Part shown: one piece after another, positions 5,254 through 26,685 of the stretch
How the letters are laid out: each line of letters starts with the position of its first letter
Position numbering within the stretch: the first letter of the stretch is position 1
DNA from: Catajapyx aquilonaris
Lineage: Eukaryota
Direction of reading: 5' to 3'
Length of the DNA stretch: 33,090 nucleotides
Assembly (NCBI GenBank): GCA_000934665.2
Contig: JYFJ02004338.1
Span: 1-33,090 of the forward strand
Program-made: the position numbers and the translations under genes
Notes under the pieces: generated by a model
The model's database searches: none
Seen by the model: the letters and a program-made list of their open reading frames with translations, nothing else
What the model was told of the DNA's origin: nothing

Positions 5254-7913
5254 TCACATAAGGCTGCACCTGTTGGCCTCTTCTGCTGCCTGGCACAGAC
5301 ACACTGCTTCGTCCATGGTCTTTCCAGGGATGTGACCTTCGCACAAGTCGCGAGAGTACATCAGGTCGTCGTGTGCCTCTTCACCTTCGTCGTAGTCCTG
5401 TATCTCGGCCGGGTACTCGCCCAACTCCAAGCTCTGAAATGTGGAAAAAAACGGACATTGGTCAGATGCACATTAATGTCCAGCACTGTTATACCCTCAC
5501 CTGGCAGATGCACTTGAGGCTTCTGGTGAAGGCCTGGTTCCTCTCCGGGGTGTCCTTGGCCGCCTTCTCGTTCTCCATGTGCACCAGGGCCTCCTTGAGC
5601 AGGCTGTACTGCTGGCGGTAGCGTCGAAGGCTTGGCTCTGGCATGACGTTCCCCTGCTTCTCCAGCCACTGGGGGTACCTCTCCGAGGCTGACAGCATCT
5701 GTGGGTAGATGACCCTGGAGATGAGGAGACGGACCAGGTCCTGCAGCCACAGCTCGAAGGCGGTCATGTCCCCTTCGTCCACATGTTCCTGGCTGAGTCC
5801 GATGTTGGCCAGCATCCTGCAGAGGACATCCTCTGAGGGCTCCTCCCTGTCCTTGTGCGCCCTGCGCTCCAGGAACTCGATCCCTTCAGCCAGGAGGACA
5901 GCCAGGGTCTTGGACCCCTCGACCCACTGGTGCGCGGCCCTCTTGGCCCCCTCCTTGAAGTAGACCCAGTTCTCGTTCAGCTCCTTCCGCAGCTTGTGCT
6001 GGGACCTCAGGTGCTCCCTGAACACTGCCTTCTCGTCGTATGGGTCCAGATCCAGCCCCACTGCGCCTCCAGGAGCCTCTTCCTCCAGGTCGTCCACTTC
6101 AGGCTGGCCAGTCATGGCCTGCAGCTCCTCGTCCCAGTTGTCCTTGTCCTCAGCTCCCTGTGGGATGTCCACTTTTCCGGTCAGACCTCGCAGGCTGTAC
6201 TCCACCTCCTGCAGCAGCGAGTCGGTCAGCATCCGGAGTCCCAGGCTCCCGTCCTGGAACCTGGCCGCCATCACCTCGTCTGACTCGTCCAGGGCATTGT
6301 AAGAGTGGTCACTGGCAGCAGCCACGACGGCCCCTTCGCCTCCGCCCTTCTCCTCTCGATGCTCTCCTGCAGGGGGCGCCACCGCCTCGTGGCAGACCCC
6401 TTCCTCGCTGCCCAAGTCCTCTAGGGGAGACTCGACACCCTCGCTGTCCACTTCCTCGCTGGGCGCAGGAGAGTCGCGTCCGAAGAAGGCCTTCTGGTCC
6501 GCCGTGTCTTCATACGGAGAAAAAGATGCGCGGTTCCAAAGTGTTTTTGGGTAAAGAAACTTTATGAGACTTACGCAATCCGATCAGGTTCCACAGAGCC
6601 TGCTCGAACTGGTAGACAGTCTGTATGATCAGCTCTTCTGCCAGGTTACCGGCTGAGACCTCCAAGTCCTCCAGGTTGCCTGAGGAAACGTGTCAAAAAG
6701 TACACGACGCAACATTAGTTATGGACATTGATAACCATCAGCACCCTAGCAAGGTGGATATTAATGGTGGCAAAAGGCTCCCGTCACCATTTACGTCTAA
6801 AGATCGGTCACGCTAAGAACGCAACCGAGTGCGCACACTAGTTCGCGCAAAACCTACAACGTTGCCACATTCATCGTGTGCTCGCCTCAGCTGTCCTTCG
6901 AGTGGCTCTGGCAACGCCGCAGAGGGGACCCACCAGTGTCAGAAATAAGCGTAACGTTCAACAGCTCATATCGCACGAAGCACTTCTCATTCCAGGAGTG
7001 CATCCTGTGCGCACACGGGATGCGCACTCTGTTGCGTTCTTATATTGACCGAATTATAACACTGTACTGTACATATATGGATGTAATGCGCACAAATTAG
7101 ATTTGTCCAAAATTATTTTATAAATGTTCGGCATTTGCTTTAGAAACGCGTTTCATCTGAAGCGCGTTTAGTCATTTCGTGGTGACCTTGTCCCATGGCA
7201 AGCATTTCCCCTTTTCAAGATGTTTCTTGGCTGGAATGGAAAAAGCTTCATCCTGTCCATTCAGGGCTACCCTCATGCCTCTCCTGCTTTGCGGATGCGT
7301 CTGACATACAGGATAAACTTTTCAAGGCGCCTCGCGTCAGCACCGCGAATTTTTATTTTTTATTTTTTAAATTGCCTGAATGTAGCAAAAATTGGGAAGA
7401 CATCCAGGTTGCTGCAAGTTGCTTTTTTTAATGCATTGTTGCCCATTTGTATTTTTTCCGGGCTTGAAACAGAAAACAACAATTGCAAAGTGTTGCCGTA
7501 AGTAGTAAACAACATGTTTAGCATGTTCGTATGCAATGTCCACTAACAATATGAGGTTCGGTTGCCAACCCTGCCGACCATTGTTGCTGATTATTGTCCC
7601 GATCGATTAGCATATTTTTGGGGGGGGCTTCCTTCAATCGATATGGACTCCACATGGCATACTTTTTTTTTGAACACATTACATGAAAAATTTGCATTAA
7701 AAGCACACGAATCAGGTGTTGCTAATTCGGATCTTATTTTTTTTGGCGAGTGCGAATCTGACCTGTTTCATGGGACAAATGGATGGCTTTGAGGCAATCT
7801 GAGAGTCGATCCTCGTCCAGAAAGATCCCCTTGATCTGCCTTGTCTCGCTGGTGTTTGTTCCGACCTGGACCGAATCCGCTTTAGTCTCCTGAACCTCTG
7901 CCGCCGACGCCAT
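5254..7913 (-). CDS. PEX19: Divergent, elongated PEX19-family peroxin, paralog A (480 aa, C-terminal CaaX CSLM)
   Basis: Hand-spliced exons 7763-7913, 6575-6679, 5501-6507 and 5254-5433. All introns are GT-AG with consistent phase; total 1443 nt. The C-terminal region SEDVLCRMLANIGL...LISRVIYPQMLSASERYPQWLEKQGNVMPEPSLRRYRQQYSLL...KCICQ|SLELGEYPAEI parallels Pex19 (SEEELTKAMEGLG...LLSKDVLYPSLKEITEKYPEWL...KYQEQ...MQQLQDLGHPPKEL). The protein ends ANRCSLM*. The first two exons are less certain than the last two. Confidence 0.88.
6804..7052. mobile_element. MITE family 1 variant in intron 1 of paralog A
   Basis: About 32-bp inverted termini: tcggtcacgctaagaacgcaaccgagtgcgca and tgcgcactctgttgcgttcttatattgaccga. 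Confidence 0.8.
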
Positions 7914-8455: not shown

Positions 8456-8900
8456 GAGACATAACAAATAATTTCAAAAAATTTAAATTAATGCAAAATT
8501 TCTAAGTTGAATTTGAAGGCTTTTTATTAGACATAACAAGTAGTCTAATTTCAAAGAGTTTAATTAATGCAAATAATTACTAATTATTGAATTTTTGAGT
8601 TTTTTTTTGCAGTGTATTGGTATGTGAGGCATAACGAGTAATTTAAAAATTTAAGTTAATGCAAAATTTCTAAGTCGCATTTGAAGGCTTTTTATGAGAC
8701 ATAACAAGTAGTCTAATTTCAACGAGTTGAATTAATGCAAATAATCACTAATTGAATTTTTAAGTTTTTTTTGCAATATATTGGCATGTGAGGCATAACG
8801 AGTAATATCAAAAAATTCAAACAAGTGCAAAAACTTACTGAAGGCTTTTTGCAATTACTTGGTATGTGAGTCGTAACAAGTAATTTCAAAAATGTAAAAA
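8456..8900. repeat. Higher-order AT-rich tandem repeat (~70 + ~96 bp dimer)
   Basis: Unit starts (gagRcataacRagta-like) at 8456, 8528, 8626, 8696, 8790 and 8868. Alternate units are the most similar to each other. Confidence 0.85.
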
Positions 8901-9487: not shown

Positions 9488-9618
9488 AAGGTTCATTCCA
9501 AAGCATTGGCAACGTCGCAAAAGTCGGCCATATTGTCACCCCCTTAAACATAGCGTTGGAAACAATTTGCGCGAACTGTGATGCGCACTCGGTTGAGCTC
9601 ATTAACAAATTCATATAT
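9488..9618. mobile_element. MITE family 1 type B, partial copy
   Basis: gcaaaagtcggccatatt...gttggaaacaatttgcgcgaactgtgatgcgcactcggtt matches 2588-2665. Confidence 0.75.
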
Positions 9619-10568: not shown

Positions 10569-10770
10569 CTAGATTTTATTTTTTAAATGAGCCTAACCGA
10601 GTGCGCAACATAGTTCGCGCAAATTGTTTCCAACATTGAGCTTGAGAGGGTAACAATATGGCCTACATTTGCGGTGTTGCCAATGAGACTCCGGAGAAGT
10701 AACTGTGGCAACAACGTAGTTGTCGGAACAATGGACTCGGTTGCGCTCGTTTAAAAAAATCAATCTATAG
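10569..10770. mobile_element. MITE family 1 type B, reverse orientation
   Basis: Inverted termini tttttaaatgagcctaaccgagt and actcggttgcgctcgtttaaaaaaatcaatctatag. The interior is the reverse complement of the 2450-2699 copy. Confidence 0.8.
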
Positions 10771-11140: not shown

Positions 11141-11148
11141 NNNNNNNN
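11141..11148. other. Assembly gap (8 N) between a C run and an A run
   Basis: nnnnnnnn in the sequence. Confidence 0.99.
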
Positions 11149-11279: not shown

Positions 11280-14200
11280 CTATGGCTTATAATTGCGGTT
11301 GGGGATTCGACCCATGCTCTTGCTGCGAGATAGACCAGTCTTCTTCATCAGGTTGATCTTACCCTTTGATGGACGCACATCTGGAGGAGGAAAAATATGT
11401 GGTGATTTTTTTTCTTCAAATTTGTTCACACATCCAGTGCTGTACTGTGTACTTGCCCAGTACAGTATAGTGCATTACCTGGCTTGATAGCAGGGGTGTC
11501 CGACTTGGATCGCTGTGGACCACGCTCCTCAAGAGTCTGGTACTTGGTCAGTTCCATGGCCATAAAATCTGAAATTAGTCAAAAAAAATGTAGCACACAA
11601 CCAGTCATGTTGCAAAACAGTCGCTATTTACCGTCAATAGGAGGCCTGACTGGACATCCCTTCTCGAGTTCCTCGGGCAGCTTTCCCAGGAGCTCAACCT
11701 TGATCATGTTCCTGAAGACACGAGCGTACCGAGCGTCCTTTTTGTCCTCCGTGTCCTCGTCCTTCTGCTGCGTTATCTCGTCCCATGCCGAGCACACAAG
11801 GTCCATCTGCTTCAGGCGCAAGGTACGCTCTTCTGGGGTTCCTGTATCGTTCGTGTCGTACGTCCTCAGCCATCCGGGAAACTGGAATTGCCAAAAAAGG
11901 AAAATGTTTCGGACACATGTTCTGATGCGACTGTGTGGCCCTTGGCACCGCACCTTCTGGGCGATGAACTGTATCTGGTAGTACATGGACACCATCGCGG
12001 TCCACTTCCACATCTGCCTGAAGCGACTCCACATCTCCTCCAGGCTCTTTCCTCGCAGGGCATCGTCGGACAGGCCGTACGCCATGCAGACCATTTGCAG
12101 CTCTTTCATAGAGTAGTAGTCCTGGAGAAGAAAAAAATATATATTATATTAGAATCACCTTTTAAATCTCGAGGTCCTTTCCCATCTCGACCTGACCTTT
12201 TGCAGCTCGTGTTCCGGCATGAGTAGGAAGGTCTTCCACGACAGCAGGGCAGCCGAGCCGTTCTTGTTTCCCCTAGCACCCCGGGCCATCCTGGAGATAG
12301 AGGACCAAACCTCGTCCTGGTCGCAAATCGACTCCTTCTTGACTGTGTGGAAGCACGAGTCAGTATACCACACACACACGCATTTAAAAATAAAATAAAA
12401 TAAAAGATGATTAGATTTACTCTTTTTGATGTACATGGTGAGGCTGTCCTGAAAAGCTCCTTTGAGCTGCAGGAGAAGGGCTTCTATCCTGACCCTGACG
12501 TCCTCCAGGTTGCTGGAATAATCTTTCTTGGGTGGTTTGCCAGGAACGGATGGCAAGGGTGGCTTCCTCCCGGCAGCGTTGGGTCCCTTCATGGCTGCCA
12601 AGCAAAGAGAGACTTTAATAACAAGGAAAAAGCCACCAGCAGAGCCAAACTCCGCAGCCAACTTGAAAATAGTTTCTCATAGCCGCTAAATGAATCCGGA
12701 ATCTTCAAAATCAAAGCCTGGAAGGGTTTTTTGTTGTTGTTGTTGTTGGAACACTGTACAGTGTGGTACAAAGTTTCAGGTGTGTGTTGGGAAGGTAATA
12801 AAGCTCGTCGGGAACATTGTCAAGGGCAGCTTGAATCGGCCCTTAAACGCAGCGAGTTTCCAGTAGCAACCAGCAGTTTGAAGTGCACAAGCTCATGTTC
12901 TCTGGTGTGGAAAAGTCATCGAACCTCACAAAGCCTAACATTTGGCCTAAAACAAAAAATCACTTCTAAAAGAGCAGCAACTAAAACGTAAAGAGCTTCT
13001 CATTTATAACCGCTACTTTAAGCCCTATTGGCGGAGAACAGTTATGCAAAGCGCTGCTTCTGGAGAACCGCTACCTTTATGAGTTATGCCCTGCGAGTTG
13101 CATGATCCTACAACAAATTTGTATTCAAAAAATTATTCACCTTTCCCCAGAGCGTTTCGGATCTTCACCTCGAATCGAGCCTGAGCCGTTTTGATGAACT
13201 TGTCCTCATGCTGGGGGGTACCTGCGGGTGGGGGAAAAAAAGAACGATGAAACTGTCGCAATATTTCAGTTTTCTTATTATAGAACCGCAAACCCGAAGC
13301 AGCGGGACGGAAAGGGAACGAAGTGAAAAGCTCGACGACAATGCAGATGAGCCCTGTCACTCATACGAGAGCTACAAGTGGGGGGAAAAAATGTATCCCC
13401 GCAGCACCTTCAAGAACCATTTGTTTTCCGCGAGTTGGGAGGATTTTAAATGCGGAAGTTTTTGGGTCGTCCATCTCATATATAATCTGGGTTTAAATGT
13501 ACTACGATCGAGCTAGTTGAACTGTAGAAACTGTAGAGAACACCGCAATCTTCAGTTTTTGAATGTATCTTAAGTCGGGACACCCTGTGAAACGTGCAAA
13601 ATTCTCCTTGTGTTGAGACATAAACTTTGTCCTGAACCACCGGCAGAACCCGCCCGCCCGCCTTTAAAACCGCGTCTATCTACCAGATCCGGGCTGTCTG
13701 GCACGACACGACATCTTATTAATCATAAACAGGCAAAGCAAGGCAAGGCAAGGAATTTTCATATGCCCCGACATGTTTGCTAGTAATTAATTTTACCTAG
13801 CGTCTTGAGCAGAGCCTGCTGCCTCAAAGCTCCTCCGACGTCTTTGACCGCCCTCTCGTAAGCTGTAAAGACACAAAACAATGTATTTTTTAAAAAATAT
13901 ATATTTCCAACATTTCTGCACATTATGTTTGATTGTTAAAGCATGGGGACAATTGGAGGGGCTTAGGCTCATCCATTACGAATAAAGCCAAAAACGGAGG
14001 GTATCTCCTGAGAGACTGGAGCCTGGGCTTTTGAATCGATCCCCCCAACCCAACCCCCACAAGCACAGGGGGTTTTCCAAGGGCAGTTATTCTGCATCCC
14101 TCCCCACCAACTATGGAGTCACACACACAGAGCCCAGGATGGAGAATTCCAGTCGGTCTCAACAGATGGAGTCGAAGCCATGTGTCTCTCGCGACTAGAA

Positions 14201-14830
14201 ATCGAGCCGGAATCGAACCCAAAAAATATATTTATTTTCCAATAGTCACAAATTAGGATTTTCTCAAAACTTCTAATACACCTAATCCACTTATCCACAA
14301 ATTTGTCGGGTCATAAACAAGTTGACCCTTTTTTTAAAAAAAAAACAAATTTGATAGTACCTCTCTGTGCAATTAGCCTGTAGTTGTACTCGTGCATTGC
14401 GATGCTGATTTGCACCGCGTACTCGGCGAAGGAAGGCACGAAGAAGTGTTCCTCCCACAGTCGTTCGGTATCGTTGCCTTTCAGAAGCTTCTGAACGTCC
14501 TTAGACAGGTCTTGATCTGGAACAGGGGAAAGAGCTATGTAAGGGTCAATAGGTCACGCGTCCCAGGTGAAAAATATATACCGTAGGTCATGAGCTCCCT
14601 GGTGGCCCTCTCGTAGTTGGACATGAGTTGCTTGACCAGTTCCACGACCCAAAGTGACACAATTCGTTCCACCTCTTCGTTCGGGGCGTCTAAGTAACAT
14701 TGACAACATTAAGTACAAGGTGATGCAATGAGGAATAATTGATGGACCTACTTATTTTCTTGGTGTCGCAAAGCATGTTGTACACAATTTGCAGTCTGTC
14801 TTCCTTCTGTGCTCCCATTGCATAAGCCAT
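11280..14830 (-). CDS. PEX19: Divergent, elongated PEX19-family protein, paralog B (472 aa, no CaaX)
   Basis: Hand-spliced exons 14752-14830, 14582-14689, 14361-14516, 13797-13862, 13141-13221, 12421-12594, 12197-12342, 11954-12121, 11632-11881, 11479-11568 and 11280-11380. All introns are GT-AG and the frame stays open; total 1419 nt. The segment MYYQIQFIAQK|FPGWLRTYD...LRLKQMDLVCSAWDEI...DEDTEDKKDARYARVFRNMIKVELLGKLPEEL matches the Pex19 C-terminal domain pattern. The protein ends GRIPNRNYKP*. Confidence 0.8.
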
Positions 14831-21113: not shown

Positions 21114-21463
21114 CATGTGAAACCTCGATTCATCGTTTTTGTCGGGGAGCTTTTAAAAATATGGCTGCATGAAAATGACAAATTGAGAAACGCCATAATG
21201 CATAAACCGCGATTTTTTAAAATAAAAAAACGATGAATGCGGGAAAACTATAATTCGAGAAACGCTAAATGCGTAAACCCTGCATGTGCCGTTTCTGTAT
21301 TATTTTTTAAACGATGAATGCGGGAAAACTATAAATCGAGAAACGATATATGCCGTAAACCCTGCATGTATCGTTTCTCAATTTACATTTTTTTAACGAG
21401 ATCGCAGGACTTAAAATATTGAACGAGGAATCCGGGAACGATAAATCGAGGTTTTACTCTGTA
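21114..21463. mobile_element. pogo/Tigger-like MITE with an internal 81-bp tandem duplication
   Basis: Inverted termini gtgaaacctcgattcatcgtt and aacgataaatcgaggttttac. The repeat aaacgatgaatgcgggaaaactataa...gtaaaccctgcatgt occurs at ~21228 and ~21309. Confidence 0.6.
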
Positions 21464-22075: not shown

Positions 22076-22644
22076 AATTTTTTGTGAGCGCAACAGGGTG
22101 CGCACCCACACTCGCGCAGCTTTGACAACGTCGCAAACGTTGCCATTTTGTTTTTCTCAAAGCGTAGCGTTGGAAATAAGTGCAGCACGCAGTACACCCA
22201 CTATACAGAGCTCACACTCTTTAAAAATATCTAGTGTATTTCCACTCGATTTTTGAGTGATTTTCATTCTTTCTCCTACTGGAATTGACTCCCATTCTTT
22301 TTGAATGGAAAATCACTCGATCACTCGAGTGAAATATTTTCAAACTGTACAATCATTAATTTCACTCAATCATTTGAACGAAAGACGATTCAGATTCGAG
22401 AGAAATACCACTCGAATGGACTGAAATGGGTTTCACTCACTGAAAGAGCAGTCTTTCAGTCATTTTAACAATTTCTTCGAGTAATTTTTCACTCGATTTG
22501 AGTTAAAGTAACTCTTTGCTGAAAAGAGCATGTGTGAAATTTTCACTCGATTTTTTTAGAGAGTACCACCTATATCATTGATAATGCCAACCGTGCACGC
22601 TGCGCGAACTGTGGTGCGCACTCGGTTGCGTTCGTAAAAAAAAA
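22076..22644. mobile_element. MITE family 1 type A copy (reverse orientation) split by a nested element
   Basis: The left part 22076-22205 and the right part 22590-22644 are the reverse complement of the two halves of the outer element at 2389-2939. Confidence 0.75.
22215..22563. mobile_element. Non-autonomous DNA transposon, possibly CACTA/EnSpm-like
   Basis: Imperfect inverted termini cactctttaaaaatatctagtg and cactcgatttttttagagag. Six internal CACTCGA motifs at 22243, 22314, 22322, 22409, 22490 and 22544. Confidence 0.6.
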
Positions 22645-23840: not shown

Positions 23841-24449
23841 TGATGGACTGACCCCGGACAAACAAATTCTCGCTATGCAAATCACTGGCTCCCAGTTTAC
23901 TGATAACAATTCAGCAATTTTCGCATTATGTTACACAAAGCAAAAAGGTCGATCCATCCGGTTTTAGAGGGAATATAGCAATATTTTGCCTCCCATTTTT
24001 CTACCCCCTCACTCCCACCACCCCACCCTATATAGTTTAATGTTGCATCCTTCGCCCCCAACACGTCACATAAAATATAGGAATTCGATGCAAAAAGCGT
24101 TAGCGGAAAATTGACAGACTCTGGTAACCCGACATGTGGAAAGAGGAATATTAGGTATTAATGTTTCATCCTGGTTGCTCTGCCAGAGAGTTATTTAGCG
24201 ATTGTGCAGCACTGTTGAGTTGATGAGTTTTTAAAATGCAAACAGTCGCAATCTATTATTATTATTATTAACAAAAAAATTAGAATACAAAAAATAAGCC
24301 TTAATCCAGATATGCCCTGGTAGAATTGTTATATTTTGAGTCATATCTGTTAAGTTCTTCATTTTTCAATATTTAAAAATTTCGCAAAAGTAAAGCTCCT
24401 GTCCTGATTTGAATATTTACAAAATTACGCGTTTTTTTGCAAAGAAAAA

Positions 24450-24864
24450 CTGTAGTTAGCGCTTGTTTGCAAGAAAAATCATATTTAACCCTTGGACATA
24501 ACTTTGGTTTAATCCTTCTGATTAGCCAAAACCTGAGCAATTATTTTGCAGATATTTTTTGTGCAAAATATGAAGTTTCCCTTTCACGGTCGGCTTTCTA
24601 ATTAAAATTAAAATTAAAATGCAAAAAATTAGCCTTCATTTCTCATAACATCAAAAAAATAATTCAGACATATCATCTGTTACTTGCAGCTTCGCAAAAT
24701 TGCGCATTTTAAATCTGTAGTTAGCGCTTGTTTGCAGGAAAAAAAATCAGCTTTAACCGTTGAAAATAACTTTGGTTTGACCCTTCTGATTAGCTCAAAA
24801 CTTGAGCAATTATTTTGCAGATATGTTTCGCAAAAGTGGAAGTTTCTCTCTCTCGGTCGCGGCT
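24450..24864. repeat. Direct repeat of ~145 bp with 265-bp spacing
   Basis: ctgtagttagcgcttgtttgca...tgagcaattattttgcagatat...cggtcg begins at 24450 and again at 24715. Confidence 0.85.
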
Positions 24865-26685
24865 TGCTAATCTGTGTTAATTGCAATGGCGATTATCCCT
24901 GCCCTGGGTTAGATCAATGCACATATCGCAATCTCAAGATCCGGTTGAGAGTTACCTCTTCCCCTCCCCCAAGAAACTTCCTCTAATGGTAATGACACGT
25001 CATTAGCGTCATTATGCGAGGCGAGAAGTGCTTAAGGTTTCCTCTCATGCGGCCCATTTCGAAGACCTTTTAGAAGAAGAAGAAGAAGATTTTTTTTTGG
25101 AGAAAACCCCCCTATAGACCCATTGATCCTCCTCACTCTTGTACTATCACTGTCTAAAAAGTCGGTTAAACCACCCATCTCGTCTTCTTCTTCTTCTTTT
25201 AAACCCAAGTTTTTTTAAAAAAAACAGTCTTACTGGTGGTTATTAGCCGGAAAAGGCTGAGAAGTCGGATAGGATTTCGGTTCGATTTTCGAGCAAGTAA
25301 AATGGATTGCTTGGGTTTGGAAAAAGAAGTTTCTCAGCAGACTACAGGGTGGTCCACAACTCCAATAAGATGATTATTTAGTCTAGCAACCGGTAGCAAT
25401 CCGGGGCAATGTTGCTTCTCATTAAGCGGGTATGACGGGCTAATTTGTCAGACTAAACCCTCTCATGTTTCCCGGTTGTACAGGGAAAGGAAGCTTTGAT
25501 TTATTTTTTCGAGAGGCTTCTAAATCAATGGTTTGCGAAAATACGGTCCTTTTTGCATTTACGAGAAATCTCATTTAAACACACTTTAGAAGCTTCATTT
25601 AGCAATATTTAAAATGTGCTTCTAAGACTCTCGTGCTCGACTTGACAGCTTTTTTTCTGTTGATGACCCAGGTCTATCTATAATATTAAAATCCTTGCGG
25701 GAGTTGGCCGAGCCCTCTGATTGGTCCTCTGCATATTGTTACCGCCACCTCCCCATTGGCCCGCGTTGTACTCATGCGCAATGGGGGTGTAAACAACTGT
25801 TGGGTTGCCGGGGAAACTGTCCATTCCCCGGCGATATGGTGCGCCGAATAGGTACCCCAGCAGGCCGCAGGCCTAGAAAAGAGCGAGCGTTTTCCTAGTA
25901 ATGTTTAAATCGGGTTACAGCATCATTGCAAATTTTAACATCCCGAATTTACATGAGAGCAACCCTGTAATGTTAATATGAATTTAGCATTTTTGTGTTA
26001 ACATACAACCATTACGCATTCCCCGAGCCTCCCAAAAATGGCGGATATAAAATCTGTTAATGTTCAGTTACCAAAATTCGCTCAACAAGCCCTAATTACA
26101 TTTCCTTTTTTTTACGTGTCCCATTAATTGATAGTCATTGACATAGAGATAGCAAATATTGGGGAGGGTCGTAAATCCGGGCATGGAGAACAACGCACCC
26201 GAGGAAAAAAAGAAAAAAAAAGAAAAAAAGCGAATTTCATGGCTCCGCAGACGCGACCGATAAAAATCCCGGGGCATTTTCATTGCTCCAAAGCTCATTG
26301 TTGGCTTTAAAAGCCAACAGATCCTAATCACGTTACTATAGTCTGAACATTTAGAAGAACATAAAAAAAGTTCAAGACGCAAAAATAATGTGTATGTTGG
26401 TTTGCACAAATTGAGCTTTTATAGGCCTATCTCTAATGTAGAAAGTAATGAAAAATCTATGATTATGCAGAAACATTCATAATGATTAATTGGAGATATA
26501 ACTTTGGTTTTAGGTAATATAACCTGGCTTTAATAACCAGAAAATTTAAGAATAACGCTAAGAGTGGAGGGCCGACATTGAAGACCTTCATTGTAAATAT
26601 TAGTTAATATTGCAAATTAAACATTAAACTGATATTTGGACAATAAAATTGAATGATATTAGAAAATACTTTGAAGGTCATTTAT

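Follow-up and report, generated by a model that had tools for sequence, protein, structure and literature searches.

In the Catajapyx aquilonaris genome, gene B, a diverged paralog of the peroxisomal chaperone gene Pex19, carries three exons in its N-terminal arm that each close with a similar helix, cut at the same point of the motif by a phase-1 intron. The gene lies at positions 11280 to 14830, on the minus strand, of contig JYFJ02004338.1 (the window, 33,090 nt analysed in full), has 11 coding exons and encodes 472 amino acids (aa) without a CaaX box. It stands head-to-tail with a second Pex19-family gene on the minus strand, the long paralog A, with 3.3 kb between them. As a rule, Pex19 exists as one gene of ~300 codons; the delivery of membrane proteins to peroxisomes is steered by its N-terminal arm, which is disordered. 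The exon structure of gene B, its intron phases, its place in the Pex19 family and the common register of the three helices are direct observations. As the best reading of these features we propose that one symmetric phase-1 exon was duplicated in tandem long ago and that the copies then diverged strongly, a history we regard as somewhat probable and one that draws on register and phase more than on similarity.

The exons of gene B map to 14752-14830, 14582-14689, 14361-14516, 13797-13862, 13141-13221 and 12421-12594 (exons 1-6) and to 12197-12342, 11954-12121, 11632-11881, 11479-11568 and 11280-11380 (exons 7-11). AG and GT are present at every junction and the spliced frame is open over 472 codons; for the borders between exons 3 and 4, 4 and 5, and 5 and 6, and for exons 10 and 11, the support consists of splice consensus and open frame only. 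Against a profile of 66 canonical Pex19 proteins, drawn from a representative HMMER search, the spliced product scored 47.4 bits (E 1e-16 for one sequence). In Pfam, a single open frame from this gene reached only 12.6 bits (PF04614 cut-off 22.2), and exons 1-6, searched singly, matched no Pfam family at E up to 1. The profile alignment is colinear through the junctions of exons 6 to 9, with exon 7 ending at model position 140/141 and exon 8 at 193/194, and canonical loci in metagenomes are split at these positions too. Gene B has thus kept two canonical intron positions, which marks it as a true Pex19 relative derived from an intron-bearing gene and rules out a processed copy. We also noted that introns 6 (12343-12420, 78 nt) and 8 (11882-11953, 72 nt) are multiples of three in length and stop-free in frame, such that their retention would keep the reading frame.

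The intron phases of gene B are 1,1,1,1,1,1,0,0,1,1, and a run of six phase-1 introns fits the duplication of a symmetric exon. Exons 2-6 are 108, 156, 66, 81 and 174 bp long, all of them open in phase 1-1 between an AG and a GT, exactly as an earlier sequence-only reading of this DNA had placed them; exon 10 is also phase 1-1. The peptides in which that reading had seen an alignable helix are the last 20 residues of B exons 2, 5 and 6 and of A exon 2 (6575-6679, minus strand, 105 bp, phase 1-1). In window coordinates, helix copies 1, 2 and 3 occupy the last 20 codons of B exon 2 (14583-14642), exon 5 (13142-13201) and exon 6 (12422-12481), and the corresponding helix of A lies at 6576-6635. 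Exon 6 begins with a Pro/Lys-rich linker, followed by a 31-residue unit that resembles A exon 2 over its full length. The profile alignment puts exon 7 and the terminal part of exon 6 in the canonical place, immediately before the helices that come next in canonical Pex19; the same canonical stretch is matched a second time by exon 2 plus the first part of exon 3. Exon 5 would be a third copy, limited to the helix. In the exon 2 match, residues 29-77 aligned weakly with model positions 59-107, which hold the Pex14-binding motif and the helix (6.4 bits, E 3.3e-4 for one sequence).

The common register was seen with several models of the canonical helix. We built a 20-position matrix of the helix after the Pex14-binding motif from 65 Pex19 proteins, none of them from the window, with model position 92 as its last position. 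Across the 453 windows of protein B, the three highest scores were those of the ends of exon 5 (11.5 bits), exon 6 (5.3) and exon 2 (5.3), and the fourth-ranked window scored -1.3; a 27-position version of the matrix picked the same three exon ends. In protein A, the end of exon 2 ranked second of 461 windows with the 20-position matrix and was the best 27-residue window. When the matrix was moved along the sequences, all four exon ends (B exons 2, 5 and 6 and A exon 2) peaked sharply, and only once within 8 residues, at offset 0, and three control exon ends gave no peak. The shared intron offset described in the sequence-only reading is borne out. Scanned in six frames with the matrix, the 33 kb gave 14 windows above 2 bits. 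Genes A and B account for nine of these, and the highest score belongs to B exon 5, whose match ends at its donor site. HMMER, in two separate domain alignments, assigned model position 92 to B residue 62, which closes exon 2, and to residue 221, which closes exon 6; this is the position at which A exon 2 ends as well. Finally, in a comparison of six helix-specific models, B exon 5 preferred this helix (4.8 bits, E 0.003), with the next best model at -1.5, and A exon 2 likewise preferred it, though as a weak match (5.7 bits, E 0.0016).

Comparisons between the two genes pointed to the same exons. With A exon 2 as the query in a Smith-Waterman search of protein B, the best hits were exons 6, 2 and 5, with scores of 33, 27 and 24 (P 0.040, 0.036 and 0.044; summed P 0.015 from 1000 shuffles), and all three alignments extended to the exon ends. 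In the reverse direction, the tail of B exon 6 found A exon 2 as its best match in A (P 0.032), with 11 of 31 residues identical by hand count and one 4-residue gap, and the start of the exon 6 unit shares 19 of 23 nucleotides with the start of A exon 2 (E 0.02). Among the 66 pairs of exon-end 20-mers, the best four, and six of the best seven, fall within the set of B exons 2, 5 and 6 and A exon 2. That same set was chosen by computer as the best combination of three B exon ends and one A exon end, with a score of T=74 that was reached by none of 5000 random sets, none of 3000 helix-like sets and, when the null sets were allowed shifts of up to 3 residues either way, three of 600. Taken as a set, these repeats thus outscored nearly all chance helices, but direct pairwise comparison within B is not significant; the likeness seen through A exon 2 is modest, and that seen through the canonical matrix is clear by rank but low by score. 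Similarity to vertebrate PEX19, which had been put at seven of 17 identical residues for each exon-2 copy, was recovered against residues 72-88 of a vertebrate protein (P0040) for B exon 2 (eight of 17) and A exon 2 (seven of 17), and was low for B exon 5 (four) and exon 6 (three).

Introns at this point of the helix appear unusual for the family. We scanned 20 canonical proteins against a metagenome and obtained 77 loci, eight of which have split matches and cover the helix. All eight (L030, L037, L073, L047, L052, L063, L045 and L055, on metagenome contigs) read through position 92 in one frame with no intron; they correspond to about five lineages, as L030, L037 and L073 are close relatives and L045 and L055 likewise. 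The intron at the helix end therefore appears special to A and B, and its threefold occurrence in B is the trace expected of a tandem duplication of one exon with its introns. A general tendency of introns to sit at helix ends explains this threefold placement less readily than duplication does. As to the canonical loci themselves, common intron positions near model 112, 141, 193 and 253-270 were seen in L030, L037, L073, L047, L052 and L063, and model positions 60-112 lie within one exon in L030, L037 and L073.

Several results weigh against a duplication. The copies in B are identical at only 3, 3 and 2 of 20 residues, and the claimed pairs score 13, 5 and 4 vs up to 24 for unrelated 20-mer pairs in B aligned at free offset. 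Smith-Waterman comparison within protein B finds no link among exons 2, 5 and 6 (P 0.06-0.99), BLASTP of A vs B gave a best E of 1.1, and short models of this helix alone returned per-protein E-values of 0.05-0.7. The helix-specific model left B exon 6 undistinguished (-0.6 bits) and gave B exon 2 a weak score of 0.8. At the DNA level, the exon-plus-intron units, including flanking introns, share no similarity beyond the one 23-nt match within exons. The matrix is also unspecific, with a third-best window of at least 5.3 bits in 43 of the 66 canonical proteins. In these proteins, the true helix has a median of 22.7 bits and the second and third windows have medians of 10.4 and 6.5; these lesser windows are other Pex19 helices, namely alpha-1 of the C-terminal domain, alpha-d and alpha-a. 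Furthermore, the end of the matrix (position 92) was picked after the alignment of B exon 2, so the register is independent only for B exons 5 and 6 and A exon 2. The exon lengths are unequal, and exons 3 and 4, whose origin is unclear, depart from the repeated unit. The helix was described as amphipathic in the sequence-only reading; this describes B exon 2 well (hydrophobic moment 0.63, high) and exon 5 (0.41) and A exon 2 (0.47) moderately, but B exon 6 is not amphipathic (0.19, low). Lastly, a word-indexed protein search returned no relatives of B of longer or similar length.

Two further segments of B were considered as copies and set aside. An additional copy had been proposed at the start of exon 4 (AYERAVKDV), where the similarity proved to be at chance level (Smith-Waterman P=0.41, matrix rank 17). 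A possible copy over the junction of exons 3 and 4 scored 24-26 against exon 5, within the chance range.

Some of these results would be expected if the three segments were unrelated helices of the kind typical of the Pex19 N-terminal arm, alike in their acidic and hydrophobic pattern and bounded by introns that sit at module borders. The canonical matrix gives other Pex19 helices 5-16 bits, direct comparisons within B are not significant and the E-values of the short models are 0.05-0.7, all of which suits this explanation. Against it stand the four exon ends in exactly one register and the rarity with which null sets reached the observed score even with shifts, as well as the finding that the best matches of A exon 2 are exactly B exons 6, 2 and 5. 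Phase 1 is common to the six introns that flank these exons, and none of the sampled canonical genes has an intron at this helix end. We consider an origin from unrelated helices possible but doubtful.

It might also be that the gene model is partly wrong or that B is a decaying copy, in which some of exons 3-5 would be open between AG and GT by chance and the array would never reach the protein level. No homolog supports exons 3-5 in protein searches; the three introns around exons 4 and 5 (within 12595-14360) are 498-575 bp long vs 62-98 bp for the other seven; and B lacks the CaaX farnesylation box that, in the portion of a comparative study available to us, is reported in all animal PEX19 (PMC8172628). 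On the other hand, the eleven exons form one open frame with AG and GT everywhere, the G+C content of the exons (0.42-0.59) is above that of the introns (0.32-0.50), exon 5 is the best six-frame matrix match of the whole window and ends at its donor site, and two canonical intron positions are kept. Taken together, we regard a faulty model or a decaying gene as improbable.

Under the tandem duplication that we favor, gene B would be a strongly diverged Pex19 duplicate made at the DNA level, head-to-tail with the long gene A. Its C-terminal half would be an ordinary Pex19 cargo-binding domain, and its N-terminal arm would have been lengthened by the old tandem duplication of one symmetric phase-1 exon, which probably encoded the helix that directly follows the Pex14-binding motif in canonical Pex19. 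Three copies would still be recognisable at the ends of exons 2, 5 and 6, each closing at the same motif point and with a phase-1 intron. We infer that these copies are homologous and not merely alike. The proposal that the extra length of B is an array of such helices would hold for the three exon ends, but not for exons 3 and 4 or for the basic Ser/Lys-rich tail of ~63 residues that two further phase-1 exons add after exon 9.

Gene A (5254 to 7913, minus strand) is a long Pex19 paralog with four coding exons (7763-7913, 6575-6679, 5501-6507 and 5254-5433) and intron phases 1,1,0; its 480-aa protein ends in the CaaX box CSLM. It scored 83.2 bits against the canonical profile, and exon 3 alone scored 48.6 bits against PF04614 (cut-off 22.2). 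Together with the profile score of B, these matches confirm the assignment of both genes to the Pex19 family. The large exon of A matches the solved C-terminal domain of human PEX19 (PDB 2wl8 and 5lnf), and it ends at model position 252/253, a canonical intron position according to the split matches in metagenome loci. This 1007-bp exon runs across 140/141 and 193/194, both of them intron positions in B and in canonical genes, so the two introns seem to have been lost from A. We also observed that its G+C content (~0.55-0.57) is above that of the surrounding DNA (0.30-0.47). Protein A matches B in length for a different reason, as its extra length (~160 residues) sits within this one exon. At residues 206-217 of A (6113-6148), a W-x-x-x-L is the best match to the Pex14-motif half of the canonical matrix (11.8 bits); it lies far downstream of the exon 2 helix and is not conserved in P0001, the long PEX19-like protein described below.

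Elsewhere in the window, 180 further open frames gave no Pfam domain except for one weak Ig-like match. An assembly gap (a run of 8 N at 11141-11148) lies ~130 bp downstream of the B stop codon. Short interspersed repeats of two families (1367-1434, 2710-2798 and 22118-22205; 2560-2666, 9489-9610 and 10578-10685), 50-110 bp long and 82-90% identical, occur on both strands in gene-poor parts, and local tandem duplications of ~90-195 bp with 83-89% identity were found at 8456-8814, 21228-21399 and 24446-24871.

Both A and B share with canonical PEX19 (PF04614; PDB 2wl8 and 5lnf) the C-terminal helical domain and the order of the N-terminal helices, and canonical intron positions are common to B (140/141 and 193/194) and A (252/253). 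Canonical PEX19, however, has ~300 aa and a single helix copy whose end carries no intron, whereas B has 472 aa, three look-alike copies and no CaaX. The full HMMER search returned 131 matches, of which one is a long form and the rest are canonical (~300 aa), and relatives of A formed one cluster only. Of the long PEX19-like proteins P0001 and P0003, the former shows 43% identity with A exon 3 and, like A, has an exon-2-type helix and a CaaX end. A metagenome scan with the long-form alignment gave 441 pattern matches, none of which was confirmed. Gene B is not close to these long forms: a profile built from A, P0001 and P0003 gave it 19.6 bits, in the C-terminal domain only, compared with 47.4 from the canonical profile. 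A narrow full-text literature search returned no work on animal Pex19 with helix repeats or on animal paralogs that lack CaaX, and we know of no repeated helix in human PEX19.

The C-terminus of B was also searched for a farnesylation signal, and no CaaX-ending frame could be reached from the gene model. The one candidate exon, which overlaps the end of exon 9 in a different frame and has Cys-x-x-x-stop at 11605-11619, was rejected because the model cannot reach it. At the other end, a sub-model of alpha-a, the N-terminal Pex3-binding helix, found no match in exon 1 of A or B, where a likeness is seen by eye only.

With respect to function, the repeated unit had been called a cargo- or membrane-contacting helix, a description for which the passages of the papers available to us give no basis. 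Human Pex19 binds the N-terminal domain of Pex14 through residues 66-77, and other N-terminal amphipathic helices of Pex19 are implicated in membrane-protein insertion (both from an excerpt of PMC4819957); the role in shielding and releasing cargo was shown, in an extract of PMC10995880, for alpha-d (around F125-L136), which in the profile alignment corresponds to B exon 7, outside the repeated unit. Given that the Pex14 motif adjoins the helix and that the cargo role belongs to alpha-d, the unit is better called the helix next to the Pex14-binding motif. On the duplication reading, gene B would encode a Pex19-like protein that lacks CaaX and bears several protein-binding helices in one multivalent arm.

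A parallel for such an arm is PEX5, which carries several copies of a W motif. The N-terminal arm of PEX5 binds the Pex14 N-terminal domain through WxxxF/Y motifs, according to the same excerpt of PMC4819957. Like the B arm, the PEX5 arm is disordered with short helices, and the canonical Pex19 helix adjoins the Pex14-binding motif. Gene B encodes W-x-x-x-L in exon 2 and W-x-x-x-F in exon 3 (residues 82-86); these motifs score weakly (1.3-2.8 bits, with 1.3 for the exon 3 motif), and Pex14 binding by B is only putative.

The lengths of B exons 2-6 are all multiples of three, so the skipping of any of them would keep the frame, and by this arithmetic in-frame isoforms are possible. Human PEX19 splice variants without exon 2 or exon 8 were reportedly described by Mayerhofer and colleagues in 2002. 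Such variants set a precedent for isoforms made by omission of whole exons, although those of B are only hypothetical. The human gene has eight exons, as given in the accessible part of PMC11705544. In its fullest form, our reading would make B a working non-farnesylated relative in which the helix next to the Pex14 motif was multiplied into a multivalent adaptor arm like that of PEX5, with the number of helices set by exon skipping, and part of a small undescribed long Pex19-like family in this genome. We consider this full version unlikely.

The case is that of a single sequence in a single genome. If the duplication is real, gene B, with no lipid anchor signal and with one arm helix repeated, would show how such arms grow by exon duplication, and it could point to a second job for a Pex19-like chaperone.

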